Shown: positions 9,954 through 48,412 of the stretch, one piece after another
How the letters are laid out: each line of letters opens with the position of its first letter
How positions within the stretch are numbered: the stretch's first letter is position 1
NCBI GenBank assembly: GCA_964566575.1
Contig: CAZMKD010000147.1
Location: 13,001-77,000, forward strand
Direction of reading: 5' to 3'
Source: an uncultured Verrucomicrobiota bacterium
Lineage (GTDB): Bacteria; Verrucomicrobiota; Verrucomicrobiia; Palsa-1439
Length of the DNA stretch: 64,000 nucleotides
Made by a program: the position numbers and the translations under genes
Notes under the pieces: model-generated
The model's database searches: none
What the model was told of the DNA's origin: nothing
The model's input: the letters and a program-made list of their open reading frames with translations, nothing else

Positions 9954-10761
9954 CAATCGTGTGCAGGTCGCGCAAGGTCTTCAGCAGACTCTTCACTTGC
10001 GAAAGCGGTAACTGATTCGCCGCGTCGCTTTTTGCTCTGGCAGGATTCGGATGCGCTTCAAGGAAGATGCCATCGCAGCCGGCCGCCACCGCGGCGCGGG
10101 CAAGTACCGGCGCCATGCGCCGGTCACCGCTGGTGTAACCGCCCGCGCCCGGCATCTGGACGCTGTGTGTGGCGTCGAACACGACCGGGTAGCCGAGTCC
10201 GCGCATGATAGCCAAGCCGCGCATGTCCACGACGAGATTGTTGTAGCCGAATGACGAGCCGCGCTCGGTGAGCATAATGTTGCGGTTGCCGGTGTCGGTG
10301 ATCTTGGCGACGGCGTGCTGCGCTTCGGTCGGCGCAAGGAACTGGCCCTTCTTCACATTGATGCAACGCTTCGTGCGCGCGGCGGCTTGAATGAGATCGG
10401 TCTGTCGGCACAGAAACGCTGGTATTTGCAACACGTCGCATATTTCGGCCGCCGGTTTGCAGTGAGCGATCTCATGAACGTCAGTCAGAATCGGCACGCC
10501 AAACTTTCGTTTCACTTTCTCAAGGACAGCGAGCCCGCGCTTCAGACCCGGTCCGCGAAAGCTGTCTCCTGCAGTCCGGTTAGCTTTGTCGAAGCTGCAT
10601 TTGAAAATGAAGGGCAACCGCAAGTCGTCGCAAATGCCGGCGAGCGCCTCGACCGTGCGCATCACCATCGTTTCGTTTTCGATGACGCACGCCCCGGCGA
10701 TGACGAACAGCGGGGCACGCTCGCCGCCGAGAGTGAGTTTGCCTGCGTGGATGGTTTTCAT
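9946..10761 (-). CDS. kdsA: 3-deoxy-8-phosphooctulonate synthase
   Basis: 271 aa. The KdsA/DAHP-synthase fold motifs [15 protein letters not shown] and [13 protein letters not shown] are present. Confidence 0.9.
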
Positions 10762-12335
10762 GTCTTGAGCGCGGCTTCGATGAAACCGCGAAAGAGAGGG
10801 TGCGCCTTGTCGGGTTTCGAGAGGAACTCAGGATGAAACTGACAGGCGATGAACCAAGGATGATCACGCAATTCGATCAGTTCGACGAGATCGTGTTTCG
10901 CATACAGCCCGGCCACCGTCAGGCCTGCTTTCATCAGTTGATCCCGGTACGTGTTGTTGAATTCGTATCGGTGGCGATGACGCTCGCGGATTTCGTCCGC
11001 GCCGTAAAGCTCCCGCGTCTTGGTGCCGGCGACGAGTTTGCACGGCTGCGCGCCGAGCCGCATCGTGCCGCCTTTAGCCTCGACGCCTTTCTGTTCTTCG
11101 AGCAGGCAGATGATGGGGTGGGGTGATTGCGGGTCGAACTCCGTGGAGTTCGCGCCGTCCAGACCGCAGACGTTGCGTGCGAACTCGATGACGGCGATCT
11201 GCATGCCGAGGCAAATGCCGAAGTACGGAATCTTCTTCTCGCGCGAGTACTGCGCCGCGAGAATCTTGCCTTCGATGCCCCGGCCCCCGAAACCGCCGGG
11301 CACGAGGATGCCAGCGAGGCCGGCGAAGTCGCCGATGTTCTCCGCGTCCACGCGCACGATTTCCACGGCGGCGTCGTTCGCGGCGCCGGCATGTTTAATC
11401 GCTTCGTACAAACTCTTGTACGCGTCCTGCAACTGGATGTACTTACCGACGACACCAATCGTGACCTTTCGCTTCGGCTCGATCATGCGCTTGAGCATTT
11501 GCTCCCAGTCGGTCATCGGCTTCGGCGGAGCGTCGAGAGCAAGATGCCGGCAGACGAGCTCGTCGAGTTTCTCGGCCCGCAAGTCGACCGGGACTTCGTA
11601 GACGGAATGTGCGACATCGAGTTCCTCAATGACGCATTCGGGATACACGTTGCAGAACATCGAAATCTTCTGGCGCACCTCCGCGCTGAGCACCTTCTCG
11701 CTCCGGCAAATCAGGATGTGCGGTTGGATGCCGATCTCGCGGAGCTTGGCGACGCTCTGCTGCGTCGGCTTGGTCTTGATCTCGCCGGCGACGCGAATGA
11801 ACGGCACGAGCGTCACGTGGATGAACAGCGAGTTCTGCGCGCCCGCTTCGAGTGCGAATTGCCGGATGGCTTCGAGGAACGGCAGCCCTTCAATGTCGCC
11901 AATCGTGCCGCCGATTTCGATGATGACGACGTCCGCGCCACTCTTCACGGCGATTTCGCGGATGCGCGTCTTGATTTCGTCGGTGACATGCGGGATGACT
12001 TGCACGGTCTTGCCGAGGTAATCACCGCGACGTTCTTTCTCGATGATCCGGGCGTACACCTGACCGGATGTGAGATTGTTGAGCCGCGTCAGCGTCGCGT
12101 GTGTAAACCGCTCATAATGGCCGAGGTCGAGGTCGGTCTCCGCGCCGTCGTCGGTCACGTAGACTTCGCCGTGCTGGAACGGGCTCATCGTGCCGGGGTC
12201 GACGTTGAGATACGGATCGAATTTCGCAAGCGTGACTTTCAGCCCGCGATTCTCCAGCAACGTGCCGAGCGAGGCGGCGGTCAGCCCCTTGCCAAGCGAA
12301 CTGATCACGCCGCCGGTGACGAAGATGTATTTCAT
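10758..12335 (-). CDS. pyrG: CTP synthase
   Basis: 525 aa. [17 protein letters not shown] at the N-terminus and the glutamine-amidotransferase region GICLGMQ. Confidence 0.95.
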
Positions 12336-13066
12336 TGCGCCCGCAATATCTCCTCGACCAACTGGGCGTCTTCCGGACGGTCCACACCGATGGAATCGTG
12401 CGGCGTGATCCAGACCTTGACGCCGAACCCATTATCGAGCGCGCGCAATTGTTCGAGCTTTTCTGTCTTCTCCAACTCCGAGGGCGGGAGCTGGACGAAT
12501 TTCATCAGGAAATCGCGCCGGTACGCGTAAATGCCCAGATGTTTGTAAAAGGTCGTGGCGTCACCGGGGTCGCGCACGAACGGAATCTGGCTGCGCGAAA
12601 AATACAGCGCGTTGCCGGTCTTGCCGATGACTACTTTGACGATGTTGGGATTCGTGAGTTGATCCGGGGCGTTGATCTTGCGGGCCAACGTTCCCATCAC
12701 GCAGCCAGGATCGCTCTGCATGCCTTCGATGAGCTGATCGATCATCTCCGGCCGCATCAACGGCTCGTCGCCCTGAATGTTGAGCACTAGTTCGCAGTCG
12801 AACGCCCGCGCGACTTCGGCGACCCGATCGGTGCCCGTCGCGCACTCGGGCGAGGTGAGCATTGCGTCGCCACCGTAGCTCTCGACGGCTTCAAGGATGC
12901 GCGTGTCTTCCGTCGCGACGACGACCTTGTCGACGCGTGTGGCCTTGGCGGCTTGCTCGTAAACACGCTGAACGAGCGTCTTACCGGCGATCAACGCTAG
13001 CGGCTTGCCGGGAAACCGTTGCGCGCCGTACCGGGCGGGAATCACGCCGAGCGTTCGCACTTTCAT
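12332..13066 (-). CDS. kdsB: 3-deoxy-manno-octulosonate cytidylyltransferase
   Basis: [16 protein letters not shown] followed by NIQGDEP. The start is assigned at [12 protein letters not shown]. Confidence 0.9.
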
Positions 13067-13510: not shown

Positions 13511-14443
13511 ATGCAGAAGAAGGCTTTGGGCAGGGGACTGGACTCTCTTATCAGCGGCGGTTTTGTCGCAACTGTTGCTGTCGAACCACCACACGCGCCG
13601 GTCGCGGTGCGCCCGCTCGGCTCGCCGGTCGCGCCGGACAACGGCGACGGTGTCAGGCATTTGGACGTCGCCGACATTGACCGCAGCCGGTTTCAGCCGC
13701 GCACGGAGTTTGATCCCGGACAACTCCGCGAGTTAGCGGACTCGATCAAACAACGCGGAGTGATGCAGCCGTTGCTGGTCCGGCCTCTCAACGGAACCAG
13801 CCGCTTCGAGTTGATTGCCGGCGAACGTCGCTGGCGCGCGGCCCGCGAAGCCGGACTGACGAAGATACCGGCGTTGGTGCGCGAAGCCAGCGATCAGGAA
13901 GCACTTGAGATCGCGCTCATTGAAAACCTCCAGCGTGAGGACCTCAACCCGATCGAAGAAGCGCGCGCGTACGAGCAGTTGGCGACGCAGTTCAAGCTGA
14001 CACAGGAGCAGATCGCTGAGAAGGTCGGACGCAACCGGGCGACGGTCGCCAATGCGATGCGATTGCTGGGGTTACCGGTCGATGTGTTGTCGTGGGTCGC
14101 AGATAATCGGCTGACTGTCGGCCACGCCAAGGCGATTCTGGGGTTGACGATTGCGGAAGAGCAGAGGCTCGTCGCCGAGCGTGTGCTGAAGCGTAATCTC
14201 ACCGTCCGCGAGACGGAACAGCTCGTCGAGCAACTCAAGGGCGATACGAAGGTCCGGTCGCGGGCGTTGGGCGGGCCGGCAAAATCACCGCACATTCTGG
14301 TCATCGAAGAGAAGCTCCGGCAGAAGCTCGGCACGCATGTGAACGTGCAGCACGGCAAAAAGAAGGGCCGCATCGAGATCGAATACTACGGCAACGACGA
14401 CTTGGCACGCTTGCTCGGTATCTTTGGAGTTGAAAATCTCTGA
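13511..14443 (+). CDS. parB: ParB/Spo0J-family partition protein
   Basis: GRGLDSLI at the N-terminus and LIAGERRWRAAREAGL (the ParB box). A strong SD sequence AAAGGAGG lies upstream. Confidence 0.85.
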   Translation: MQKKALGRGLDSLISGGFVATVAVEPPHAPVAVRPLGSPVAPDNGDGVRHLDVADIDRSRFQPRTEFDPGQLRELADSIKQRGVMQPLLVRPLNGTSRFELIAGERRWRAAREAGLTKIPALVREASDQEALEIALIENLQREDLNPIEEARAYEQLATQFKLTQEQIAEKVGRNRATVANAMRLLGLPVDVLSWVADNRLTVGHAKAILGLTIAEEQRLVAERVLKRNLTVRETEQLVEQLKGDTKVRSRALGGPAKSPHILVIEEKLRQKLGTHVNVQHGKKKGRIEIEYYGNDDLARLLGIFGVENL

Positions 14444-14465
14444 GCGGTCTGAAACCGTCTGACGT

Positions 14466-15581
14466 GTGAACACGCCAGACCGCCAGCACCGCGCCAAGCG
14501 CTACGAGGCGATTCACAACGGCCTCTTTGTTGTGGAGGCGGGTTACTCCGCTACTTTGCTGGTGACGTTCCTGCTGACTGGTGCGTCGGATTTTCTCGCG
14601 GACTCGTCTCGCACCGTTTCGTCGAACCCATGGCTCGCAACGGCGGTGTATGCCGGCGTCGTGTCCGTGGCGGCGAAACTGTTGTTTCTTCCGCTGAACT
14701 TCTGCGGCGATTTTTATCTCGAACATCGGTTCGGACTCTCCAACGAATCGCTGGGCCGGTGGGCCGTGGATGAAGTAAAATCGCTCGCCTTGAACATCGT
14801 GCTCGGTGTGGTCGTGCTCGATGTCGTGTACTTCCTGTTGCGTCGGGCCGGGGACTGGTGGTGGGTCGGCGCCGGTATCTTTTCCCTGCTGTTTAGCGTC
14901 GTCCTCTCGACGATCTTTCCGGTGCTGATCCTGCCGTTGTTCTACAAACTGCAACCGCTGGAAAACGAATCGCTCAAGCAAAAGCTCGTGACGCTCGCGC
15001 AACGAGTCGGGGCGAGAGTGCTCGGTGTGTACCGGATGGGCATGAGCGAGAAGACGAAGAAGGCCAACGCCGCCTTTGCCGGCCTCGGTGCGACTAAACG
15101 CATCATTCTTGGCGACACGTTGCTCGATAGTTTTGCCGAAGACGAAATCGAAGTGGTCATGGCGCACGAGATGGCGCACTACAAACACGGCGACATCACC
15201 AAGCTGCTCGTGTGGAGCACGGCGACGACGTTTGTCGGTCTCTGGCTCGCGGACAAGGGGCTGCGGGCCGGCCTGCAGCATTTCGGCTTCACCGAGATCA
15301 GCGATCTCGGCGCGTTTCCGTTGCTGGCGTTGTGTTTGTTTGTGTTCGGTCTCGTGGCGATGCCGGTCAACAATGCATTCTCGCGCTGGCGGGAGCGGCT
15401 GGCGGACCACGAAGCGTTGGCGCTCACAGAAAATCCGGACGGTTTTGTCCGCGCGATGCGCAAGCTCGCGGATCAGAATCTCGCGGATCTCTCACCGCAT
15501 CCGGCCGTGGAATTCCTGCTGCACGATCATCCTTCGCTGGCGCGGCGCATTTCCTGGGCGGAGCAATGGCAACGAAGCTGA
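14466..15581 (+). CDS. M48 family metallopeptidase (Ste24/HtpX-like)
   Basis: Multi-TM N-terminus plus the HEMAHYKHGD zinc motif. Probable GTG start. Confidence 0.85.
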   Translation: MNTPDRQHRAKRYEAIHNGLFVVEAGYSATLLVTFLLTGASDFLADSSRTVSSNPWLATAVYAGVVSVAAKLLFLPLNFCGDFYLEHRFGLSNESLGRWAVDEVKSLALNIVLGVVVLDVVYFLLRRAGDWWWVGAGIFSLLFSVVLSTIFPVLILPLFYKLQPLENESLKQKLVTLAQRVGARVLGVYRMGMSEKTKKANAAFAGLGATKRIILGDTLLDSFAEDEIEVVMAHEMAHYKHGDITKLLVWSTATTFVGLWLADKGLRAGLQHFGFTEISDLGAFPLLALCLFVFGLVAMPVNNAFSRWRERLADHEALALTENPDGFVRAMRKLADQNLADLSPHPAVEFLLHDHPSLARRISWAEQWQRS

Positions 15582-16486
15582 GCCCGGCATTGCTCCTGAC
15601 AATCCTGCTGGCCGGCTGTGGTCGAAACCCGGCGCCGGAGATTCAGTGGCGCATGTTCAGCGGCGAGCGCGCCTATTCACAGGCCCAGAAGATCGTCGAC
15701 TTCGGCCCGCGACCCAGCGGCAGCCCGGCGCTGGCGCGGTTGACGGTCTCGCTGACCACGCAATTGCAGGAGTACGGATTGGCAGCCGACGAGCAGACGT
15801 TCATCGCGCCCACGCCGCGCGGCCCAGTGCAGTTTCGCAATCTCGTCGCCCGGACCCGCGGCGCACGCGGGGGCCCCGGCCAGGTTATCCTCATCGGCGC
15901 GCACTACGACACGAAGTGGATGACCAATACAACGTTCGTCGGCGCCAACGATGGCGCGTCGGGGGCGGCGGTGTTGCTGGAGATGGCGCGCGTGGCGTCG
16001 ACGCAGCCGAATTTGTGGTTCGTGTTCTTCGATGGCGAAGAGGCGACGCGCGAGTATGCCGAGGAGGACGGTCTGCACGGCAGCCGGTTCTTCGTCGAGG
16101 AACTAAAAGCCTCCGGCAGAATCAATTGGGTGAAGGCCATGGTCCTGCTCGACATGGTGGGTGACGCGCGCCTCAACATCAGCATGCCGGTCAACAGCGA
16201 CCCGAAGCTGGTCGAGCAAGTGTTCGAGGCGGCGCGCGATGCGGGCCACCGGGACTATTTTAGTTATGGCAAGAGCGAGATAGTGGACGATCACCTCCCC
16301 TTCCTGCGTGCCGGCATCCCGGCCGTGAACTTGATCGATTTTGAGTACGGAAGCGCACCGGGATTGAACGACTACTGGCACACCGGCCGGGATACGATGG
16401 ATAAAATCGTCCCGCGCAGCCTTGAGATTACTGGCCAGACGGCCTTACGACTGATTTCCCGCCTGAAAACCGTCGCCCCGCATTGA
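15566..16486 (+). CDS. M28 family peptidase lipoprotein
   Basis: Lipobox LLAGC, then ILIGAHYDTK...GANDGASGAAVLLEMAR and FVFFDGEE (M28 metal ligands). It overlaps the M48 gene end by about 16 nt. Confidence 0.8.
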   Translation: MATKLSPALLLTILLAGCGRNPAPEIQWRMFSGERAYSQAQKIVDFGPRPSGSPALARLTVSLTTQLQEYGLAADEQTFIAPTPRGPVQFRNLVARTRGARGGPGQVILIGAHYDTKWMTNTTFVGANDGASGAAVLLEMARVASTQPNLWFVFFDGEEATREYAEEDGLHGSRFFVEELKASGRINWVKAMVLLDMVGDARLNISMPVNSDPKLVEQVFEAARDAGHRDYFSYGKSEIVDDHLPFLRAGIPAVNLIDFEYGSAPGLNDYWHTGRDTMDKIVPRSLEITGQTALRLISRLKTVAPH

Positions 16487-16553
16487 ACCGGCCTGCCGTC
16501 TGCTCTACTCTGTGAATGGGCACCCGACGGGGGCGACCCACGGACGGAACATC

Positions 16554-18524
16554 ATGGACAAGCTGCAAGTGCTGACGAACGTCCCGCTGCTGGCCGGTCT
16601 CGGGGAAGAGTTGATGAAAGGGATGGCCGAGCGGGCGGGATTCGTCACGATTAAGAAGGGCGAACTGGTCTTTCGCGAGAACGATCCAGGGGATGCCCTC
16701 TATGCCGTCGTTACCGGCCGTCTGCAAGCCTACACCCGGCTCAGCAGCGGCCGCGAGCGTGTCTTCGCCACGTACTGCAATGGCGATTGTTTCGGTGAGA
16801 TGCCGCTGTTGTCCGGCGAAACACAATGGGCCAGCGTCCGCGCCCTCAACGACTCCGTCCTGTTGCGAATTCCCCGGGAAGACTTCGACGCCGTCGTCAA
16901 CCGCGATCCGCGCGTAGCCGTCGGCTTCACGCGTCGGCTCGCGCATCGTGTCAAGGAACTCCGTGCGGAAAAGAATCGCGCCAAGACCAGCAACATCATC
17001 GCGCTCTACAGCGCGGTGCCTGGTGCCGGCAAGACGCTACTGGCGACCAACCTTGTCGCCAGCCTCGCGCACGAAACGGCTGAGCCGGTCCTGTTGCTGG
17101 ATTTCAGCGGCCAGCAACGAGGCGAACCGTTGGCGGCCTGTGAGCGGATCGTCAGTCAGCCGAGCGCGCCATTGGACGGACTGGTGGTGCACACGCCGCT
17201 CGGCTACGACCGGCTCAATCTGACGATGCGGGGCGACGAACGCGAAGCTCCGTTGATCGCGCCACTGTTCGGCCGGTTGGTCAAACACTACGACTACGTG
17301 CTGGTCGATCTGCCGAACGAAGCGTCCGCGTCGACGATGGAATGTCTGCTGCAGGCCGATCAGGTTTACATCATTGCCCGGAGCGAAGAGGAACACCTGC
17401 ACCGGACCCGGTTGCTGTTGGACGACCTGCGTTCCCGCCGTCTTGGTGTCACGCCGAAGGCGCGCGTGATCCTCACTGCCGTCAGTGAAACCTGCGCGCC
17501 AACCGTCGAGGAATCGGAACGCAAGGTCGGTCAAGACATCAGTCATCTGCTGCGTTGGATACCGGAGACCGACATCATCGAGTCTGTGGACGGCGTGCCG
17601 TTCGTGTTGCGCCGTCCGATGGAAGCATACAGCCTCGTGGTGCGCCGCATGGCGCGCGAGCTGGGCAACGCGCTTGTCGGCCTCGCGCTCGGCACCGGCG
17701 CGGCACGCGGCTTGGGACACATCGGCGTCATCCGCGTTCTGGAGCGCGAGGGCTTGGCGGTGGACGTCGTGGCCGGCAGTTCGATGGGCGCGCTGGTCGG
17801 CGCAGCGTGGGCCGTCGGCAAATCGGCCGACGAGATGGAGCAGCTGGCGCTGCAGGTCAAGGGGCGACGAGCGTTCCTGCGATTGCTCGACCCGGTGTTC
17901 CCGGGATCGGGCTTCATCCGCGGCCTGAAAGTGCAGGAATTTCTGCACGGGATCGTGGACGAACTGACGTTTGCCGACACGCTCATCCCGCTCAAGATTA
18001 TCGCCAGCGATCTGAACACGATGGAAGAAATCGTCTTCGAGCACGGTCGGCTGCTCGATGCGATCCGCGCGAGCATTTCGATCCCCGGCGTCTTCCGTCC
18101 CGTCGCCAACAACGGCCACGTTCTCATCGACGGCGGCATCACCGACCCCGTGCCAGTCGACGTGCTGGTTCGTTCGGGGGTCACCAAGATCATCGCGGTC
18201 AACACCATCCCCAATGTGGACGAGATGAAACATCGGGCCTTGGTGCGCAGCGAGATGAAATCTGCGAAACGCGGCGAACCGGTTCGCGAAATCGGCCCGG
18301 TCGTCGAGACACCCACCAGCATCATCAACGTGTATATGCGCTCGATGCATGTAATGCAATCGCGCATGGCCGAGGAAGCCTGCACGCGCGCCGACGTGGT
18401 CCTGCGCCCGATTGTGGTTGGAGGCGTGTGGTACGATTTCTATCATCCCGAGAAGTATATTCGGGCGGGCGAACAAGCGGCCGAGGAAGCATTGCCGAAG
18501 TTGAAGGAGTTGATGCGCGCATGA
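16554..18524 (+). CDS. cyclic-nucleotide-binding domain / degenerate ParA-MinD-like domain / patatin-like phospholipase fusion protein
   Basis: A cNMP domain (GDCFGEMPLL), then IIALYSAVPGAGKTLLATNLV...YVLVDLP (a deviant P-loop), then patatin motifs GTGAARGLGHIGV, GSSMGA and DGG. The ORF opens at 16512 (GTG), but the start is placed at MDKLQ. Confidence 0.8.
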   Translation: MDKLQVLTNVPLLAGLGEELMKGMAERAGFVTIKKGELVFRENDPGDALYAVVTGRLQAYTRLSSGRERVFATYCNGDCFGEMPLLSGETQWASVRALNDSVLLRIPREDFDAVVNRDPRVAVGFTRRLAHRVKELRAEKNRAKTSNIIALYSAVPGAGKTLLATNLVASLAHETAEPVLLLDFSGQQRGEPLAACERIVSQPSAPLDGLVVHTPLGYDRLNLTMRGDEREAPLIAPLFGRLVKHYDYVLVDLPNEASASTMECLLQADQVYIIARSEEEHLHRTRLLLDDLRSRRLGVTPKARVILTAVSETCAPTVEESERKVGQDISHLLRWIPETDIIESVDGVPFVLRRPMEAYSLVVRRMARELGNALVGLALGTGAARGLGHIGVIRVLEREGLAVDVVAGSSMGALVGAAWAVGKSADEMEQLALQVKGRRAFLRLLDPVFPGSGFIRGLKVQEFLHGIVDELTFADTLIPLKIIASDLNTMEEIVFEHGRLLDAIRASISIPGVFRPVANNGHVLIDGGITDPVPVDVLVRSGVTKIIAVNTIPNVDEMKHRALVRSEMKSAKRGEPVREIGPVVETPTSIINVYMRSMHVMQSRMAEEACTRADVVLRPIVVGGVWYDFYHPEKYIRAGEQAAEEALPKLKELMRA

Positions 18525-18552: not shown

Positions 18553-19986
18553 ATGAAATGGGATGAGATACCGGCGACCGAACAGCGCCGGCTACAAAAC
18601 GAGAAGCTGCACCGGTATCTCACCGAGGTCGTCGCGCCGTTCAGTCCGTACTACCGGAAGTTTGATCTCGGTAGGATCAAGACCGTCGAAGACCTCCGGC
18701 ATCTGCCGTTCACCACCAAAACCGATCTGCTGCCGACCTCTGAGCAGCCGGAAAAATTCCGCGAGTTCATCATCACGCCGGACATCACCGTACTCAAACA
18801 CCGGCCGCGCGTCATGGCCGAAGCCATGTTTCGCGGCCGGCGCGCCGTCGAGCGCCGGTTCGAGCGCGAGTACCGGCCGATCTTTCTCACCGCGACCACC
18901 GGTCGGAGTTCGTCCCCGGTCGCTTTCGCGTACACCGAGCATGACATGCACAATCTCCGCGAAACCGGCGCGCGACTGATCCAGACTTTTGGCTGCACCA
19001 CCAAGATGCGCGGGGTGAACATGTTTCCGTACGCGCCACATCTGGCTTTCTGGCAGGTCGTGTTTGCCGGGCTGGAGTTCGGGATGCTCATTCTCAGTAC
19101 CGGCGGCGGCAAAGTCATGGGCACGGACGGCAACATCCACGCGATCGAAAAGATCAAACCCGAAGCGCTCGCCGGCATCCCGACGTTCGTCTATCACGTC
19201 ATCCGTCAGGCCCACGAAGAAGGCCGGCGTTGGCCGCAAGTCAGCAAAATCATTCTCGGCGGCGAAAAATCTCCGCAAGGCATCCGGCGCAAGATTGTTA
19301 GTCTGTTGCAGGAAATGGGTGCCGGTGATGTCCGCGTCTGCAGCACGTATGGATTCACGGAGTCGCGCACCGCGTGGGGCGAATGCCCGCCGCCGCCCGG
19401 CGAATGGAGCGGCTATCATCTGTTCCCGGACCTCGGTATCTTCGAAGTCATTGACCCGATCACGAGCGAAGTGAAAGGGGAGGGAGAGCCGGGCGAGTTG
19501 GTTTACACGCCACTCGATGCGCGCGGCACCGTCGTGCTGCGTTACCGGACGGGCGACTATGTGGACGGCGGTCTCACGTGGGAACCGTGCCCGCATTGCG
19601 GCCGAACCGTGCCTCGCATCGTGGGCGGCATCGGTCGCGCGAGCAACACGAAAGAACTGCAGTTCGGGAAACTCAAGGGCACACTCGTCAACTTCGACAC
19701 CCTCCAACACATCCTCGACGACTCGTCCGATGTCAGCGAATGGCAACTCGAAATCCGCAAAGCCCATGACGATCCGCACGACGTGGACGAGCTTGTGCTA
19801 CACATCGCGCCCGACAACGGCGCAAACGTTGACCGCCTGAAGGACAAGATCCGGCAGCGCTTCCAGACAGAAGTCGAGGTCACGCCCAACCGCATCGAAG
19901 TTCATTCGCTCGATGATATGCTGCGCCGCATCAAGCTGGAAACCAGCCTCAAAGAAGTCCGTATTCTCGACGCCCGGCCGAAGTAA
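18553..19986 (+). CDS. phenylacetate-CoA ligase family (PaaK-like) adenylate-forming enzyme
   Basis: 477 aa. PaaK-like architecture with ...TTGRSSSPV..., YGFTES and GEPGELVYT. Confidence 0.8.
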   Translation: MKWDEIPATEQRRLQNEKLHRYLTEVVAPFSPYYRKFDLGRIKTVEDLRHLPFTTKTDLLPTSEQPEKFREFIITPDITVLKHRPRVMAEAMFRGRRAVERRFEREYRPIFLTATTGRSSSPVAFAYTEHDMHNLRETGARLIQTFGCTTKMRGVNMFPYAPHLAFWQVVFAGLEFGMLILSTGGGKVMGTDGNIHAIEKIKPEALAGIPTFVYHVIRQAHEEGRRWPQVSKIILGGEKSPQGIRRKIVSLLQEMGAGDVRVCSTYGFTESRTAWGECPPPPGEWSGYHLFPDLGIFEVIDPITSEVKGEGEPGELVYTPLDARGTVVLRYRTGDYVDGGLTWEPCPHCGRTVPRIVGGIGRASNTKELQFGKLKGTLVNFDTLQHILDDSSDVSEWQLEIRKAHDDPHDVDELVLHIAPDNGANVDRLKDKIRQRFQTEVEVTPNRIEVHSLDDMLRRIKLETSLKEVRILDARPK

Positions 19987-20382: not shown

Positions 20383-22950
20383 TCACGGGCCTAGCGGTTT
20401 GTTGTCCGGGCTGCCCTGGCCACTGCCCGGTGCGTCGTTTCCCTTCGGACTGCCCGGCGGCGCCGTGGCGATGACGTTGCGCGCCCCGTTAGAGCGTTTG
20501 CCGCAGTGCGATCTCGCCGCCTGGCTGACAATCTCGCCCTTCTGTTCCTCTGTAATCAGCCCGGCTGCCAGGAATTGGTTTGCGGCCTTGGCCACCCTCG
20601 ACACGTACTGACCGTGGTTTCTCCACGTCCCGCCAGCACGCGGTCCCGAGCACGGCACGAGTTGGTCAATGCTGCAGCCGTGGGTGTCAACGACCGCTCC
20701 CGCCACGGTGTTCGGGCATGAATCAAGGTCGTCACGCACTCCATCTCCGTCGCTGTCCGGGTTCTGGACTTCAAACGCGCCGATGTCGCTGCCGTCGCCG
20801 CCTGCGGCGTTGGCAATGGCGAGGAAGTTAACCGGCCGGGGGAAACCGCGCTGGTCGGTGGCCGCGCCGCTGAAGTTCTTGCCCTGATCAATAGCCGGGC
20901 TGCCGGGGAACAGCGCGTGTGTAAAGGTCGGGCCGCCGTTGTCCGCCAGCGGGCCGAGCAGTGGAGGAGTGTTGGTCTGGTCGCCGGTGTTGGTTAAGAA
21001 GCCGCCACCGTCATCGCTGCTCAGGTTGTAGCCGAGCGAGGTGACCGTGCCGTTTTGATTGCTGATGGTGCTGCCCGAAGCGCCAGCGTTTAGGATGGTG
21101 CTGCCGATTTCCAACGTCGCGCTGGTGCCGCCAAAATCTTCGTTGAAGATGCCGCCACATCCAACCTCGGCCGAGTTGCCGCTCACTGTGCTGTTGGCAA
21201 TCGTCAGCGTCCCGCCGGCGTTGTAGATGCCGCCGCCTTCACCTTGGCCTTCACCCTGGGCCGAGTTGCCGCTGAGGGTGCTGTTGGCGATCTGCACGGT
21301 CGCGCTGCTTTGAAAAGCTTCATTCAAGATGCCGCCGCCGAAGGTGGCCGAGTTGCCGCTGAGGGTGCTGTTGGCAATCGTCAGCGTCGCGCTGCCACCA
21401 TTGAAAGCTGCGTTGTAGATGCCGCCGCCTTCATACTGGGACGAGTTGCCGCTGAGGGTGCTGTTGCTAACCGTCAGCGTCGCGCTGCCATTGTTTCCGT
21501 CGTTCCAAATGCCGCCGCCGGAGACAGCCCTGTTGAGGCTCAGCGTGCTGTCGACAACCGTCAGGCTCGCGCTCCCGGTTCTACCGTCGTTGTAAATGCC
21601 GCCGCCGCCGTAGCCGGCCGAGTTGCCGCTCAGGGTGCTGTTGGCAATCGTCAGCATCCCGAAGTTGTCGATGCCGCCGCCGCTACCGGTGGCCGAGTTG
21701 CCAATGAGAGTGCAGTCGCTGACAGTCAGCGTCGCGTGGTCGTTGTAGATGCCGCCGCCCGCGTCGTCTGGGAAATTGAGGCCGGCAGTGTGACCGTTGG
21801 TAATCGTCAGGCTGGAGATGGTGACGGTTACGGCGTTCGTAATGTGAAACACGCGGCTGGCGGCGTTGCCGTCCACCGCCAGATTGCCGGGGCCGGGGCC
21901 GATGATGGTCACGCTTTTCGTGACGAGCAGTTCGCCGCTGGTCAGCAGAATGGTGCCGGAGACGCCGGTAGCATCAATGATGTCGCCGTCCGACGCACAC
22001 GCCAGTGCCGCGCGCAACGAGCCGGGGCCGCTGTCAGCGGTGGTCGTGACAAGGGGTGGAGAGCACGGAAACCAAAGAATCGCGTCGTTTTGGCCCGTGG
22101 AACTATTATACGCGTATCCAACGATGTTGCTATTGGCATCAACACCTTGCGCAAAGGAACTCGTGTAGTTCGACGAGAGGAAGCTGTGTAGGTCCACCGC
22201 GCTGGCTGCGGTGCCGGACCACAACAGTGCGTGGGGGTTGCCGCCCGCCATGGTTCCGTCGCCGACCTGCTGGCTACCGGAAAGGCCGAGGGCTTCCGAC
22301 ACAATGAATCCACTGGGGTTGAGGTCCACGGCGCTGACGGCCGTGCCGGACCATAACAGAGCGTGGACGTTGCCGCCCGTGCTGGGGCCGTATCCGTGGC
22401 CGACCTGCTGGCTACCGGAAATGCCGTTGGCGATCGAGTCAGTGAACCCGCTGGGGTGTAGGTCCACGGCGCTGGCCGCCGTGCCAGACCACAACAGCGC
22501 GTGATTGTTGAAGCCCGCCATGGTTCCGTTGCCGACCTGCTGGCTACCGGAAACGCCGAGGGCGTACGACCAACTGAACCCGCTGGGGTGTAGGTCCACG
22601 GCGCTGGCCGCTGTGCCAGACCACAACAGCGCATGGCTGTTGCCGCCCGTGCCGGGGCCGTATCCGTTGCCGACCTGCTGGCTGCCGGAAATGCCGCCGG
22701 CACCCGACTCAGTGAATCCGCTGGGGTTGAGGTCCACGGCGCTGGCCGCTGTGCCAGACCACAACAGCGCATGGCTGTTGCCGCCTGTGAGGCCGGAGCC
22801 GACCTGCTGGCTACCGGAAATGCCGAGGGCGGCCGAATCAATGAACCCGCTGGGGTTGAGGTCAATGAATGTGTACTGCGCTTCGACCGCCACGGGCACG
22901 GCCACAATCGCCAGCGCGAGCATCCAAATGGTTTGTTTTCTCGATTTCAT
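20383..22950 (-). CDS. secreted beta-propeller-like/right-handed beta-helix adhesin-like protein with thrombospondin-type-3 (calcium-binding) repeat
   Basis: 855 aa. Signal peptide, then about six units of 'HALLWSGTAASAVDLNPSGF..GISGSQQVGNG', then GGGIYN/ANSTLSGNSA parallel beta-helix repeats, then a DSDGDGVRDDLD calcium-binding repeat. Confidence 0.8.
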   Translation of the reverse strand: MKSRKQTIWMLALAIVAVPVAVEAQYTFIDLNPSGFIDSAALGISGSQQVGSGLTGGNSHALLWSGTAASAVDLNPSGFTESGAGGISGSQQVGNGYGPGTGGNSHALLWSGTAASAVDLHPSGFSWSYALGVSGSQQVGNGTMAGFNNHALLWSGTAASAVDLHPSGFTDSIANGISGSQQVGHGYGPSTGGNVHALLWSGTAVSAVDLNPSGFIVSEALGLSGSQQVGDGTMAGGNPHALLWSGTAASAVDLHSFLSSNYTSSFAQGVDANSNIVGYAYNSSTGQNDAILWFPCSPPLVTTTADSGPGSLRAALACASDGDIIDATGVSGTILLTSGELLVTKSVTIIGPGPGNLAVDGNAASRVFHITNAVTVTISSLTITNGHTAGLNFPDDAGGGIYNDHATLTVSDCTLIGNSATGSGGGIDNFGMLTIANSTLSGNSAGYGGGGIYNDGRTGSASLTVVDSTLSLNRAVSGGGIWNDGNNGSATLTVSNSTLSGNSSQYEGGGIYNAAFNGGSATLTIANSTLSGNSATFGGGILNEAFQSSATVQIANSTLSGNSAQGEGQGEGGGIYNAGGTLTIANSTVSGNSAEVGCGGIFNEDFGGTSATLEIGSTILNAGASGSTISNQNGTVTSLGYNLSSDDGGGFLTNTGDQTNTPPLLGPLADNGGPTFTHALFPGSPAIDQGKNFSGAATDQRGFPRPVNFLAIANAAGGDGSDIGAFEVQNPDSDGDGVRDDLDSCPNTVAGAVVDTHGCSIDQLVPCSGPRAGGTWRNHGQYVSRVAKAANQFLAAGLITEEQKGEIVSQAARSHCGKRSNGARNVIATAPPGSPKGNDAPGSGQGSPDNKPLGP
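22198..22870. repeat. about 126-144-bp tandem DNA repeats (5 units) inside the adhesin gene
   Basis: Near-identical units each begin GTCCACGGCGCTGGCCGC(T/C)GTGCCAGACCACAACAGCGC. They start at about 22198, 22325, 22463, 22589 and 22733. Confidence 0.7.
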
Positions 22951-25135: not shown

Positions 25136-26374
25136 ATGACGCGACTGGCCATCATCGACGGGGTGCGGACGCCGTTCTGCAAAGCCGGAACGGACCTCAA
25201 AGCATTGCCGGCGCAAGACCTCGGCCGCATCGTCGTCAGCGAAGTGCTGGAACGCACGAGCTTCAAGCCCGGTAAGGTCTCGCAAGTCATCTTCGGCTGC
25301 GTCGCGCAACCGGCGGAAGCCGCCAACATCGCACGCGTCATCGCCCTCAACGCCGGCATCCCGCACGAAGTTCCCGCGTACACCGTGCATCGCAATTGCG
25401 CGAGCGGCTTCGAGGCGATCACCAGCGCGTATGAGAAAATGGTGGCCGGGCAGGGTGATGTGTTTGTCGTCGGCGGCACCGAAAGCATGTCGAACATCCC
25501 GCTGCTGTATTCGACCGCCGCTGCCGAGAAGTTCGCCGCGCTCGCAAAGGCGAAGAGCTTGCCGGACAAGGTCCGCGCCGCTCTCGGTTTTCGGCCATCG
25601 GACTTCCGTCCTCGCATCGGCATCATGCTCGGTCTCACCGATCCAACTTGCGGCCTCAACATGGGGCAAACGGCAGAGGTTCTTTACCGGGATTTCGGCA
25701 TCAGCCGGGAAGACCAGGACCGGTTCGCGCTCGATTCGCACTTGAAAGCAGCAAAAGCGCGGGCGAAGTTGCACGAAGAGATTACCACTGTTTATTTGCC
25801 GCGCGGGAAGTTCACGCAAGACGACAACGGCGTTCGCGAGAATCAGACGATGGAGGCGCTGGCGAAGCTAAAGCCAGTCTTCGCGAAGCACAACGGCACC
25901 GTAACAGCCGGCAATTCCTCGCAACTCACCGACGGCGCCGTCGCGTTGCTGGTGATGAGCGAAGACAAAGCACGCGAGTTGAAGTTGGATCCGCTCGGTT
26001 ATCTTCGCAGCTACGCGTATGCCGGTTGTGAGCCGCAGCGTATGGGGCTTGGCCCGGCCTACGCGATTCCGGAGGCACTCGAAGCGGCGCGCGTCCGGTG
26101 GGACGAGATCCAACTGATCGAAATCAACGAAGCGTTCGCCGTGCAAGTGCTCGCCGTCGAAACGTTCCTGCGCAAGCAATCCGGTTTGACCATCAACCGC
26201 GACCTGCTCAACGTCAACGGCGGCGCGATCGCGCTCGGTCACCCGGTCGGTGCGAGCGGTGCACGGCTCGTATTGACTCTGCTGAAGGAAATGAAGCGCC
26301 GAAACCTGAAGACCGGTCTGGCCTCGGCTTGTGTCGGCGGCGGGCAGGGGGCGGCGTTGGTTGTGGAGAGATGA
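25136..26374 (+). CDS. fadA: acetyl-CoA C-acyltransferase (thiolase, FadA-like)
   Basis: NRNCASGFEAI (the active-site Cys region) and the C-terminal GGAIALGHPVGASGARL and CVGGGQG. Confidence 0.9.
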   Translation: MTRLAIIDGVRTPFCKAGTDLKALPAQDLGRIVVSEVLERTSFKPGKVSQVIFGCVAQPAEAANIARVIALNAGIPHEVPAYTVHRNCASGFEAITSAYEKMVAGQGDVFVVGGTESMSNIPLLYSTAAAEKFAALAKAKSLPDKVRAALGFRPSDFRPRIGIMLGLTDPTCGLNMGQTAEVLYRDFGISREDQDRFALDSHLKAAKARAKLHEEITTVYLPRGKFTQDDNGVRENQTMEALAKLKPVFAKHNGTVTAGNSSQLTDGAVALLVMSEDKARELKLDPLGYLRSYAYAGCEPQRMGLGPAYAIPEALEAARVRWDEIQLIEINEAFAVQVLAVETFLRKQSGLTINRDLLNVNGGAIALGHPVGASGARLVLTLLKEMKRRNLKTGLASACVGGGQGAALVVER

Positions 26375-27089: not shown

Positions 27090-29039
27090 ATGAAGGGCAA
27101 GTCGATCAATCTCGAACGGGATGCTGACGGCATCGCGTGGGTGGTGTTCGATGACCCGAACGCCAAGGTCAACGTTTTCAACTCCGGCAACGTCGCGTTG
27201 CTGGACCGGATTCTCGACGAACTGGCGCAGCAGAAACCGAAGCGTGTCGTCTTCATCAGCGGCAAGCCGGACACCTTCATTGCCGGGGCGGACATTAAAG
27301 AGTTGGAGAAAATTCGCGACGACGCGCACGGCGAGGAACTATCGAGGGCTGGTCACAAGATTTTCGCCAAGATCGAGAACCTCGGCGTCTCGACGGTGGC
27401 GGCGATAGATGGCGCGTGCCTCGGCGGCGGCTGCGAGTTAGCGCTGGCGTGCAGCGCCCGGGTGGCGACTGACAATCCGAAGACACAGATTGGGCTGCCG
27501 GAAACGCAACTTGGCATAATTCCCGGCTGGGGCGGCACACAGCGGTTGCCGGGATTGATCGGATTGCGTGCGGCGCTGGAGATCATCGTGCCCGGCAAGA
27601 CGCTGGATGCTGCGCGCGCCTTGAAGGTCGGACTTGTGGACGCCGTCGTGCCCAAAGTTGCGTTGCGAGAGGCTGCGGTGAAAACAATTTGTAGGAGCGC
27701 CCTTCCGGGCGCGACCGGCCGGAGTCGCGCGCAGAAGCGCGCTCCCACATTGCCGGACTTTATCGTGCGTGCGATTGCTCGCAAGCAAACCCTGGCGAAA
27801 ACCCACGGTCATTATCCGGCGCCGTTGAAGGCGATCGAAATTGCCGGGCGCGGGTTCGAGGCGGAGGCGCGGGCGTTCGGCGAAGTGTCGGCAACATCGC
27901 AGTGCAAGAACCTGATTCGGGTTTTCTTTCTACGCGAGAAATACTCGAAGCTGCGGTTGCCGGGCGGCGAGAGAGCGAAGAAGATTGAGAAGGTCGGCGT
28001 GCTTGGCGCCGGCACGATGGGCGCCGGCATCGCGATGTGGTGCAGCGCGCGCGGCTTGACGGTGCGGTTGAAGGACATCAAGCCGGAGTTTGTTGCGGTC
28101 GGCATGAAACGCATCGAGGACGCTTACCGGGATGGGGTAAAGCGGCGCAAAATTACCGAGTTGCAGATGCAGCAAGGCATGGCGCGCGTGCATCCGACTA
28201 CCGAGTACACGGGCTTCGGTGATTGCAACATCGTCATCGAGGCGGTGCTGGAGAAGATCGAGATCAAGCGGCCGGTCTTCAGCGAACTCACGCCACTGCT
28301 CCGGCCAGACTGTGTTATCGCGTCGAACACCTCGGCGATTCCGATCGATGATCTGGCGGCAGCGACGGGACGGCCGGAGAAGTTTGTCGGGATTCACTTT
28401 TTCAATCCCGTTCACAAGATGCCACTGGTGGAAGTGGTGCGCGGCACAAAGACGTCGCCGGAAGTCGTCGCCGCAGCCGTTGAGTTTGCGAAGCAGCTCA
28501 AGAAGATACCGGTGGTCGTCAAAGGCGCGCCGGGGTTCTTGGTGAACCGGTTGTTGATGCCGTACCTGAACGAAGCCGGCGTCATATTGGGCGAAGGCGT
28601 GGGCGTGGAAGCGTTGGACAAGGCAATGGTGGATTTTGGCTGGCCGATGGGGCCGGCACGGTTGATTGACGAAATCGGCATTGACGTGACGCTGGATGTG
28701 GCACGCGAGTTGGCCGAGGCGTTTCGTGGCCGGATGATTGTCGCGCCAATTCTCCGGCAAGTGCACGAGCAGGGCTTGAAAGGGCGCAAGGGTGGGGCAG
28801 GGTTTTACATCGGGGACCGGCCGAACCCGGCCGTCAAACTTCCCGGCGGCAAGAGCCTGAGCGCCGACGAGATTCAGAAGCGGTTGATGAACGCGATGGT
28901 GGCGGAAGCCAAGTTATGCTTGAAGGAGGGGATTGTCGCGGCGGAGGACGACATTGATGTGGCGCTGATTTTCGGTACCGGCTTCCCGCCGTTTCGTGGT
29001 GGGCTGGTGAAATGGGCGCGCGATACGGAGGTGTGGTGA
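27090..29039 (+). CDS. fadB: fatty-acid oxidation complex alpha subunit-like (enoyl-CoA hydratase + 3-hydroxyacyl-CoA dehydrogenase), FadB/FadJ-like
   Basis: Crotonase fold (AAIDGACLGGGCELAL) and an NAD-binding domain (VGVLGAGTMGAGIA), 649 aa in total. Confidence 0.9.
   Translation: MKGKSINLERDADGIAWVVFDDPNAKVNVFNSGNVALLDRILDELAQQKPKRVVFISGKPDTFIAGADIKELEKIRDDAHGEELSRAGHKIFAKIENLGVSTVAAIDGACLGGGCELALACSARVATDNPKTQIGLPETQLGIIPGWGGTQRLPGLIGLRAALEIIVPGKTLDAARALKVGLVDAVVPKVALREAAVKTICRSALPGATGRSRAQKRAPTLPDFIVRAIARKQTLAKTHGHYPAPLKAIEIAGRGFEAEARAFGEVSATSQCKNLIRVFFLREKYSKLRLPGGERAKKIEKVGVLGAGTMGAGIAMWCSARGLTVRLKDIKPEFVAVGMKRIEDAYRDGVKRRKITELQMQQGMARVHPTTEYTGFGDCNIVIEAVLEKIEIKRPVFSELTPLLRPDCVIASNTSAIPIDDLAAATGRPEKFVGIHFFNPVHKMPLVEVVRGTKTSPEVVAAAVEFAKQLKKIPVVVKGAPGFLVNRLLMPYLNEAGVILGEGVGVEALDKAMVDFGWPMGPARLIDEIGIDVTLDVARELAEAFRGRMIVAPILRQVHEQGLKGRKGGAGFYIGDRPNPAVKLPGGKSLSADEIQKRLMNAMVAEAKLCLKEGIVAAEDDIDVALIFGTGFPPFRGGLVKWARDTEVW
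27690..27749. repeat. REPIN copy inserted in frame inside the fadB-like CDS
   Basis: TGTAGGAGCGCCCTTCCGGGCGCGA, then CCGGCCGGAG, then TCGCGCGCAGAAGCGCGCTCCCACA. It translates as ...TICRSALPGATGRSRAQKRAPTL... in the linker between the hydratase and dehydrogenase domains. Confidence 0.8.
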
Positions 29040-34205: not shown

Positions 34206-35414
34206 ATGTTGGCCTTTCATTACCAGGCGCGAGACAACGCAGGACAAGTAATCAGCGGACAAATCGAAGCGGCAGATCAGCAGGGCGCAGCGACGATCCT
34301 GTCCAACCGCAACCTCATGATTGTCTCTCTCCGTCCGAGCGGTTCGCGGAGAGCTTCCACCAAACGCATGCAGGGCAAAGTCAAAGCCCAGGATCTTGTC
34401 GTGTTCTCCCGGCAACTGGCGACGATGATGGATGCCGGACTCCCGTTGTTGCAGTCGCTCACGGCCTTGGAGGAACAGACCGACAGTAAGGTGTTCAAGG
34501 GCATCATTCGATCTATCATGCAAAAGGTCGAAGCCGGCGACGCCCTTTCCTTAGCCCTCGCTGCGTATCCAAAGGTGTTCAACAAACTATACGTGAGCAT
34601 GGTCGAGGCGGGAGAGACCGGCGGTTTGCTGGCCGAGATTCTCGATCGCGTCGCCACCTACCTCGAGGCATCGTCGCGGTTGAAGAAGAAGGTCAAGTCC
34701 GCCATGTCCTATCCGGTGATTGTGTGCGCGATCGCGATGTGCATCTCGCTGTTCCTGCTCATGAAGGTCATCCCGATCTTTGGCGACATTTATAAAGACT
34801 TCGGCGCCAAGCTGCCGACGCCCACCCAGATATTGATCAATTTCAGCGATTTTCTGCGGGCGCATTTCTTAATGTTCATCGGCGCTCTGGGAGGAATGAT
34901 CTTCGCCTTCGTCAAACTCAAGCGCACGAGCCGCGGGACGCGGATTTGGGATCGGGTCAAACTTAAATTCCCGATCTTCGGAAAGCTTGCTCACAAGATT
35001 TGCATCACGCGATTTGCGCGCACGTTCGCCGCGCTCCTCCGTAGCGGTGTTCCAATTCTGGAGACGCTGCGGATCGTCGGTCAGTCGTCCGGCAACACCC
35101 AGGTTGAAATCGCGGTGGAGAAGACCGCGGCCAGCATCGAACGGGGCGACGGCCTGGCCTTGGCGCTCGGCCAACACGCCATCTTTCCGCCCATGCTGGT
35201 TCGCATGGTGGCGGCCGGCGAGCAGACCGGCAAAGTCGACGTCATGCTCGAGAAGATCTCAGATTTTTTTGATGAAGAGATTGAGGCGACATTGTCAGCT
35301 CTGACTTCGCTGATCGAGCCCCTGCTGATTGTGTTCTTGGGCGTTGTGGTCGGCACAATCGTCGTCTGCATGTTCCTGCCGATCTTCAAACTCAACCAGA
35401 TCGTGCAGTTCTAG
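34206..35414 (+). CDS. pilC: type IV pilus / type II secretion platform protein (GspF/PilC family)
   Basis: 402 aa with two GspF repeats (...KVEAGDALSLAL... and ...ASIERGDGLALAL...). Confidence 0.85.
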   Translation: MLAFHYQARDNAGQVISGQIEAADQQGAATILSNRNLMIVSLRPSGSRRASTKRMQGKVKAQDLVVFSRQLATMMDAGLPLLQSLTALEEQTDSKVFKGIIRSIMQKVEAGDALSLALAAYPKVFNKLYVSMVEAGETGGLLAEILDRVATYLEASSRLKKKVKSAMSYPVIVCAIAMCISLFLLMKVIPIFGDIYKDFGAKLPTPTQILINFSDFLRAHFLMFIGALGGMIFAFVKLKRTSRGTRIWDRVKLKFPIFGKLAHKICITRFARTFAALLRSGVPILETLRIVGQSSGNTQVEIAVEKTAASIERGDGLALALGQHAIFPPMLVRMVAAGEQTGKVDVMLEKISDFFDEEIEATLSALTSLIEPLLIVFLGVVVGTIVVCMFLPIFKLNQIVQF

Positions 35415-35464
35415 CCGGGAAGGCGACACGGGGGTGTCGCCGCGAGACAGGAGGAGATGCAAAT

Positions 35465-48344: not shown

Positions 48345-48412
48345 GGGCGCGGCATCTTACGCGGCTGCTGCCTGTATTGCAACGGCGACGAGGACGTGCT
48401 ACCGATAAAGCC

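Follow-up and report, generated by a model that had tools for sequence, protein, structure and literature searches.

ATPases of the ParA/MinD type are known to work as positioning machines that stand on their own; what, then, would a domain of this fold do in the middle of a lipase? The question is raised by a gene in a 64,000-nucleotide stretch of DNA from an uncultured Verrucomicrobiota bacterium (GenBank assembly GCA_964566575.1, contig CAZMKD010000147.1, positions 13,001 to 77,000; hereafter, the window). Its product, referred to below as the tri-domain protein, combines in a single chain a sensor domain of the cyclic nucleoside monophosphate (cNMP)-binding type, a ParA/MinD-fold P-loop domain, and a patatin-like lipase domain. 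It is a real, widely conserved, and unstudied bacterial protein, a predicted lipase with a sensor and a decayed ParA/MinD-type domain. Its role, at a probability of roughly 0.55, would be that of a soluble signal-gated patatin lipase freeing acyl chains for β-oxidation, with the pseudo-MinD domain as a coupling, dimerization, or targeting element.

The gene is a complete open reading frame (ORF) encoding 656 amino acids and a stop codon (Table 1). An alternative in-frame GTG at 16512 is possible; the ATG at 16554 is taken as the right start, since 26 homologues begin at the same position (M-[ED]-DKLQVL). The gaps flanking the gene measure 67 nt and 28 nt, and neither contains a terminator-like site. 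Domain searches with Pfam and NCBIfam bore out the three-part layout proposed in the initial annotation of the window: cNMP_binding (PF00027, the only such domain in the protein) was matched at residues 31–118 (E 5e-25), and Patatin (PF01734) at residues 377–538 (E 5e-30; 105.5 bits vs. a cut-off of 27.7). In between, the Pfam match to AAA_31 was marginal (30.9 bits, cut-off 27), BcsQ and CbiA stayed below the threshold, and the NCBIfam models of ParA, BcsQ, and bacterial tyrosine kinases (BY-kinases) gave weak matches to the P-loop. The full-length monomer model built with AlphaFold2 (AF2) was characterized by a predicted local distance difference test (pLDDT) of 79.7 and a predicted template modeling score (pTM) of 0.82. 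No transmembrane segment was predicted in the protein; the maximum of the 19-residue Kyte–Doolittle hydropathy (KD19 = 1.51) was located inside the catalytic core.

The origin of the middle domain was approached by profile comparison. In a search of 1.84 billion representative sequences, the best matches of its profile beyond its own family were proteins of about 400 amino acids with AAA_31 in 52 of the 54, Response_reg in 31 of the 54, and the canonical KGGxGKT in their consensus. The hhalign alignment of the middle domain with the ATPase domain of these receiver+AAA_31 (CpaE/TadZ-type) proteins covered the full length (230 columns, probability 100%, E 3e-44), placing KGG over V-P-G and DLD over D-F-S. 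This upholds the earlier assignment of the region to the ParA/MinD type, the fold being of the SIMIBI class; as judged from the profiles, its nearest relatives are the CpaE/TadZ-type proteins and not chromosomal ParA. The CpaE/TadZ-type proteins are localization factors encoded in tad pilus loci (PMC11407121). The tri-domain protein shares with them the MinD-like domain of the AAA_31 type, with homology from end to end, but neither their canonical KGGxGKT, nor their receiver domain, nor their lack of an enzyme domain: its N-terminus is cNMP_binding, and its neighbors are peptidases, an AMP-forming ligase, and β-oxidation genes instead of tad/cpa genes.

How much of the nucleotide site has survived was judged from two samples: an alignment of the window's clade (27 sequences, identity down to 48%) and family-wide counts (83 members in all, made up of distant representatives and genome-derived sequences). 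The ParA signature lysine corresponds to V155 here and to V, L, T, M, I, R, or H in the clade, so the motif SAVPGAGKT is not a deviant Walker A of the xKGGxxK[ST] type. The initial annotation had called this Walker A degenerate, with both its lysine and its glycines altered. The loss of the signature lysine is confirmed, but the G159-K160 pair is invariant in the clade, as are D183 and P254, with D252 nearly so; T161 is retained except in the most distant subclade, where it is A or G. Since the PGxGK[ST] form of the P-loop is common to the active BY-kinases BceF (PTPGIGKS) and VpsO (SCLPGEGKT), the motif alone is no proof of inactivity.

The second Asp of the Walker A' DxD motif (D44 of Soj, D40 of MinD) is the catalytic residue. 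In the clade, it is replaced by S, T, G, or N, and Ser185 of the tri-domain protein aligns with the D44A position of the Soj structure 2bek (T. thermophilus). Across the family, the catalytic Asp is present in 5/83 members, K160 in 27/83, GK[ST] in 24/83, and the full set of GK[ST], D183, and D252 in 17/83; the Walker B pattern hhhhD, represented here by V-L-V-D252-L-P, keeps D or E in 61/83. The mean pairwise identity of the middle domain is also the lowest of the three (24%; sensor, 33%; patatin core, 46%). Because the P-loop lysine is found in 27 of 83 members vs. 82 of 83 for the lipase dyad, ATP turnover does not appear to be the conserved function of the domain. With its nucleotide site decayed and its sequence the least conserved, this function is seemingly structural, i.e., coupling, dimerization, or targeting. 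The proposal of a non-catalytic middle domain thus gains support from the Asp-to-Ser replacement and from the family-wide counts. Compared with ParA/Soj and MinD, the domain lacks the signature lysine (KGG replaced by V-P-G), the catalytic second Asp, and a conserved ParB partner; unlike the free ParA/MinD proteins, it is embedded in a larger enzyme and has lost the P-loop in most relatives. As a separate observation, the helix following the P-loop (residues 166–175, nt 17049–17078) carries a family-specific invariant signature, N-L-x-x-S-L-x-x-E-T, which persists in the broad-family consensus even in the absence of the P-loop.

The window's clade represents the best-preserved corner of the family, and nucleotide binding may persist in it, because G159-K160 is invariant, T161 is mostly kept, and the P-loop form is BY-kinase-like. 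A stronger version of this idea is that the middle domain in this clade is an active NTPase or a BY-kinase-like autokinase, so that ATP use or phosphorylation would switch the lipase, turning the protein into an energy-state sensor. Apart from the P-loop form and the conservation of G159-K160, D183, D252, and P254 in all or nearly all 27 clade members, it is favored by a weak correlation between the retention of K160 and that of D183 across the family (Fisher p = 0.024). Still, the likeness to BY-kinases (Wzc/CapB/BceF) is confined to the PGxGK[ST] Walker A: the DxDxR Walker A' and the C-terminal tyrosine cluster are missing, and BY-kinases are not the closest fold. An active enzyme in the middle position is considered unlikely, though not to the point of being negligible.

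The initial annotation also pointed to an orphan parB about 2 kb upstream and to the lack of parA in the window, and both observations proved correct. A three-domain ParB is encoded at 13511–14443 (+), 2.1 kb upstream of the tri-domain gene and on the same strand. It is directly followed by genes of an M48 (CAAX-protease-like) and an M28 peptidase (the block spans 13511–16486, +), with short intergenic gaps, no terminator-like site on the way to the tri-domain gene, and no parA beside parB. The KGGxGK[ST] motif does not occur elsewhere in the 64-kb window, and a receiver+MinD-like profile detected no other ParA/MinD domain among its ORFs; likewise, the tri-domain gene was the sole ParA/MinD ORF within the ±10 kb fetched near parB in four related genomes. 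The two other matches of that profile, ORFs 46947–48356 (−) and 35285–36904 (+), cover the receiver part only, N-terminal in both; the former also possesses a Walker A (GIVGKS) and looks like a σ54 activator of the NtrC type.

These facts could be taken to mean that the ParA-like domain is a localization module tied to the orphan ParB, either with a ParABS system positioning the phospholipase or with the tri-domain protein replacing the missing ParA. The order parB–M48–M28–tri-domain gene is indeed kept in relatives at 62–76% identity, the parB–M48–M28 block being found in the related Verrucomicrobiae L001, L006, L007, and L008. In the synteny survey (all ORFs of 37 loci clustered, ±10 kb fetched; the loci are not phylogenetically independent), however, the order extending from parB to the ligase was restricted to the closest Verrucomicrobiae clade (L001, L002, L006–L008). 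In L003 and L009 (60–63% identity), the parB adjacency is absent and the ligase alone remains, divergent from the tri-domain gene; in L004, the peptidases lie 7 kb from it with unrelated genes in between; and none of the surveyed loci from Chthoniobacterales, Omnitrophota, and Planctomycetia has parB next to the gene. Hence, with parB adjacent in the closest clade only, the gene has no conserved cognate partner such as ParB or MinE. Moreover, the domain is without the signature lysine on which the ParA sandwich dimer depends, it has another residue in place of the catalytic Asp, which would be the target of stimulation by ParB, and most of the family no longer has a functional P-loop sequence. 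Its closest relatives are of the CpaE/TadZ type, and a canonical parA may lie beyond the window. The partnership with ParB was rejected on the basis of the synteny survey and is regarded as extremely improbable.

The sensor domain has the β-roll fold of the CRP/PKA-R type, as indicated by its FGE motif and by matches to CRP, PKA-R, and SthK in the PDB and to CRP in Foldseek. In the alignment to PKA-R cassettes, the position of the canonical phosphate-binding Arg is taken by Q91, followed by W92, which is invariant in the clade. Family-wide, this position is His in 69/83 members and Arg in 2/83, both from outlying lineages (homologues L026, Moduliflexus, and L028, Deltaproteobacteria). The replacement of Arg by His could reflect an early switch of ligand within the family. 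Since the residue with an established role in phosphate binding is replaced, canonical cAMP or cGMP binding by this sensor is doubtful, and so, as far as the cNMP domain is concerned, is the earlier suggestion that the phospholipase may be regulated by nucleotide binding. In the AF2 model, the C-helix of the sensor (residues 119–143) leads directly into strand 1 (residues 147–153) of the P-loop domain, making this junction a plausible path for signal transmission.

The lipase domain shows no signs of such decay: it displays the Gly-rich oxyanion motif, the GxSxG nucleophile, and the DG[GA] Asp motif, and on these grounds, it is a patatin lipase domain with an intact Ser410/Asp526 dyad. The NCBIfam model RssA (NF007623) matched residues 374–655 with E 1.8e-41 and 142.3 bits, below the curated cut-off of 272. 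Foldseek gave PlpD as the best structural match (5fya; 32% identity at a TM-score of 0.86), with CapE and CapV next (E ~1e-11). The domain is, therefore, of the RssA (YchK)/PlpD type, with the same GxGxxG, GxSxG, and DGG motifs; unlike the single-domain RssA and the type-V secreted PlpD, the tri-domain protein features two additional N-terminal domains.

A cNMP domain plus an effector is the design of Pycsar (pyrimidine cyclase system for antiphage resistance). Together with the fold similarity to CapV and CapE, this raises the possibility of an abortive-infection effector of the Pycsar or CBASS (cyclic oligonucleotide-based antiphage signaling system) kind, in which a cyclic nucleotide would activate the patatin phospholipase to wreck the membrane upon phage infection. 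In those systems, a nucleotide-sensing element controls a patatin phospholipase or another effector, a principle that would be shared here, and the defense-oriented PADLOC search returned a match of the PycTIR model to residues 5–198 (1e-13), along with weak matches of phospholipase effector models. The PycTIR match, however, is to the cNMP fold in general and falls behind that of Pfam (5e-25), while the NCBIfam CBASS_lipase model reached only E 0.04. Unlike in CBASS and Pycsar loci, no cyclase, other defense gene, or defense island was detected among the conserved neighbors. The context is housekeeping and catabolic, the phosphate-binding cassette is non-canonical and devoid of its Arg, and the gene shows vertical conservation with stable housekeeping/β-oxidation synteny across a phylum, in contrast to patchy defense islands. 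With the PADLOC matches being generic and both a cyclase and an island context lacking, the defense effector was rejected as very unlikely.

What the initial annotation overlooked, while correctly noting the nearby parB, is the conserved linkage to genes of a PaaK-like AMP-forming ligase and β-oxidation enzymes. In the 37 loci, the most recurrent neighbors were the FadB-type gene (16), the thiolase (14), the PaaK-like ligase (13), and an acyl-CoA dehydrogenase (ACAD; 10), and at least one of them occurred within ±10 kb in 22/37 loci. Pfam confirmed the identities of the neighbors and revealed an ACAD9/ACADV C-terminal domain of the very-long-chain acyl-CoA dehydrogenase (VLCAD) type on the dehydrogenase. 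At least six distinct arrangements were encountered in two phyla. Tight same-strand clusters in the order tri-domain gene–ligase–thiolase–FadB–ACAD are present in L021, L022, and L031 (Chthoniobacterales and other Verrucomicrobiota); L027 follows the same order, its sequence ending before the ACAD. In L009, the ligase, thiolase, FadB, and ACAD genes are divergent from the tri-domain gene, whereas L032 and L038 feature ligase–thiolase–FadB–...–ACAD–tri-domain gene. The arrangements in Omnitrophota are tri-domain gene–thiolase–3-hydroxyacyl-CoA dehydrogenase, tri-domain gene–FadB, or ACAD–tri-domain gene. The recurrence of the linkage in so many arrangements suggests that it has been maintained by selection.

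Within Verrucomicrobiota, the PaaK-like ligase is the most persistent neighbor of the tri-domain gene, and we infer that it is the functional partner of the tri-domain protein. Its best solved relatives are phenylacetate-CoA ligases, and its closest NCBIfam models are the flexirubin-pathway acyl-CoA ligase and PaaK, not FadD. The ligase of the window additionally contains a CxxC-type motif (…EPCPHCGR…) at about residues 344–357, with weak matches to zinc-finger Pfam families. In this genome, the lipase and ligase genes are separated from the thiolase and FadB genes by an 855-aa ORF at 20383–22950 (−). It contains about five tandem copies of a unit of ~48 amino acids (…HALLWSGTAASAVDL[NH]PSGF…), followed by many β-helix-like repeats of the ‘NSTLSGNSA’ type and a C-terminal Asp-rich segment, and resembles a repeat protein that is secreted or exposed at the surface.

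Table 1. Coordinates of the tri-domain gene, its domains and motifs, and the associated metabolic genes in the window.
Feature	Position (nt)	Strand	Basis or remark
Tri-domain gene (cNMP-like sensor + pseudo-MinD/ParA domain + patatin lipase), complete ORF	16554..18524	+	AF2 full-length model
cNMP-binding-type (CRP/PKA-R fold) sensor domain, aa 1–143	16554..16982	+	Pfam PF00027; PDB and Foldseek matches; DSSP of the model
Phosphate-binding cassette F80-G-E...Q91-W92-A-S-V-R96	16791..16841	+	Alignment to PKA-R/CRP cassettes
ParA/MinD-fold P-loop domain, aa 144–372, CpaE/TadZ (AAA_31) branch	16983..17669	+	Profile comparison
Walker A/P-loop S153-A-V-P-G-A-G159-K160-T161	17010..17036	+	Clade column counts; hhalign
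Walker A' remnant D183-F-S185	17100..17108	+	First Asp retained; second (catalytic) Asp replaced by Ser
Walker B Y246-D-Y-V-L-V-D252-L-P254-N	17289..17318	+	Alignment; clade column counts
Patatin-like (RssA/NTE/PlpD-type) lipase domain with C-terminal extension, aa 373–656	17670..18521	+	PF01734; NCBIfam RssA; Foldseek PlpD
Oxyanion-hole motif G380-T-G-A-A-R385-G386	17691..17711	+	G382, A384, R385, and G386 invariant in the clade
Nucleophile elbow G408-S-S410-M-G412	17775..17789	+	Invariant in the clade; S410 in 82/83 family-wide
Catalytic Asp motif D526-G-G	18129..18137	+	Invariant in the clade; D526 in 82/83 family-wide
PaaK-like AMP-forming ligase	18553..19986	+	Starts 28 nt downstream of the tri-domain gene
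Thiolase (FadA-type), recurrent β-oxidation neighborhood	25136..26374	+	Context
FadB-type enoyl-CoA hydratase/3-hydroxyacyl-CoA dehydrogenase	27090..29039	+	Context

The analysis established the domain identities, motif states, family-wide conservation, and synteny described above; what the lipase acts on, which ligand the sensor binds, how the domains are coupled, and what the ligase contributes are inferred parts of the proposed lipase function. According to this proposal, the N-terminal cNMP-type domain would sense a signal, the ligand of which may differ from cAMP and cGMP, given the replacement of the phosphate-binding Arg. The signal would pass via the long C-helix into the ParA/MinD-fold domain. 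With the signature lysine and the catalytic Asp lost, and in most members the P-loop lysine as well, the latter would most likely act as a non-hydrolyzing coupling, dimerization, or localization module between the sensor and the lipase instead of a partition ATPase. The C-terminal patatin domain, a putative lipase or phospholipase operating with Ser410 and Asp526, would then release fatty acids; the adjacent PaaK-like ligase would activate the freed acyl chains, and the thiolase, FadB, and acyl-CoA dehydrogenase would degrade them.

Several points weigh against this proposal. The ligase is PaaK-like and not a FadD-type fatty-acyl-CoA synthetase, which makes its substrate uncertain. In 15 of the 37 loci, no β-oxidation gene was found in the fetched DNA, several of these loci being on short contigs, and in the window, the distance to the thiolase and FadB genes is 6.6–8.6 kb, with an unrelated minus-strand gene in between. 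As the window's clade retains the invariant G-K along with D183 and D252, this protein may bind ATP or even hydrolyze it slowly. The best named match of the patatin domain is to RssA, a protein of unclear function, and at 142 bits it falls short of the cut-off of 272 bits. Finally, the inter-domain geometry is that predicted by the AF2 model of the monomer only.

A lipase of this type may also serve membrane-lipid homeostasis as a (lyso)phospholipase resembling RssA or NTE, unrelated to catabolism and with β-oxidation genes as incidental neighbors. At the family level, the patatin domain matches RssA and PlpD best, in line with this possibility, and NTE and PNPLA7 are lysophospholipases combining cNMP domains with patatin (PMC5704489). 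PNPLA7 is anchored by an N-terminal transmembrane segment and contains three putative cNMP domains; these domains affect its localization to lipid droplets but not its activity, and cNMP analogues likewise alter where it is found and not how active it is (PMC5704489). The tri-domain protein resembles the eukaryotic neuropathy target esterase family (NTE/PNPLA6 and PNPLA7) in the cNMP-type domain placed N-terminally to a patatin lipase with the Ser/Asp dyad, and the ligand specificity is uncertain for the cNMP domains of both. In contrast to NTE and PNPLA7, which are anchored, carry three cNMP domains, and have no P-loop domain, it features a single cNMP domain and no predicted transmembrane helix, and a 230-aa ParA/MinD-fold domain is inserted between its sensor and lipase. 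Since the β-oxidation linkage recurs in several independent arrangements in two phyla, chance is hard to invoke, and a purely homeostatic role looks decidedly unlikely.

The preferred reading, a signal-gated lipase supplying β-oxidation, can be extended in a more speculative direction, which is put forward here very tentatively. In this version, the lipase would be gated by a metabolite or a second messenger and would mobilize stored or membrane lipid into the adjacent β-oxidation pathway. The ParA/MinD ATPase would have been captured in cis and decayed to a dimerizing or lipid-surface-targeting pseudo-ATPase, and the sensor with His in place of Arg would recognize another ligand, e.g., acyl-CoA or a different nucleotide. 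The logic of such a switch would be analogous to that of the regulated ATGL/PNPLA lipolysis of eukaryotes.

The family is widespread. The first homologue search returned 243 proteins; among the 120 of them listed, most were full-length (~660 aa) with 48–96% identity. They originated from metagenome-assembled genomes (MAGs) of Verrucomicrobiia and Methylacidiphilales, and their database labels were limited to ‘patatin-like phospholipase family protein’ or ‘NTE family protein’. Both cNMP_binding and Patatin were detected in 57/58 distant long representatives (Response_reg in 1/58), and the named distant members belong to Omnitrophota, Lindowbacteria, and Verrucomicrobiota. In the GTDB species genomes, the middle-domain profile confirmed the architecture in Verrucomicrobiae, Chthoniobacterales, many Omnitrophota, Planctomycetia, Elusimicrobia, and Moduliflexus; its match in one Deltaproteobacterium was weak. 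End-to-end tblastn matches from Acidobacteriaceae (L047, L048, L050), Desulfobacterales (L036), and Promineifilum (L083) are cNMP + patatin proteins of 615–754 aa in which the middle-domain profile detected nothing; they were left out of the family counts, and their linker may correspond either to another inserted domain or to an extremely divergent form. In the related Verrucomicrobiae MAG L008, the tri-domain gene is split by a frameshift into overlapping ORFs (9956–10594 and 10398–12908), which could be a pseudogene or an assembly error.

This breadth is not matched by the literature: in full-text searches, neither the architecture nor its linkage to β-oxidation was found described, and where the candidate papers named patatin alongside cNMP or ParA, they did so incidentally. 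With nothing but generic labels in the databases and no paper describing the architecture found, it can hardly be called a well-described family. One JGI annotation string (P0300) lists RssA, CRP-like, and cellulose-biosynthesis (BcsQ-like) parts; hence, automated pipelines can see the domains.

Overall, a ParA/MinD domain fused between a sensor and an enzyme, with its fold retained and its nucleotide site progressively lost, would clearly exemplify a pseudo-ATPase put to new use in coupling or targeting. Natural members with an intact P-loop exist in the family beside P-loop-dead ones, and the two can be readily compared to learn the role of the middle domain. The β-oxidation linkage provides a testable function for the protein across Verrucomicrobiota, Omnitrophota, and related, mostly uncultured phyla, where the breakdown of lipids and its control have hardly been studied. 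It further points to regulated lipolysis through sensor–patatin proteins as more than a eukaryotic trait.

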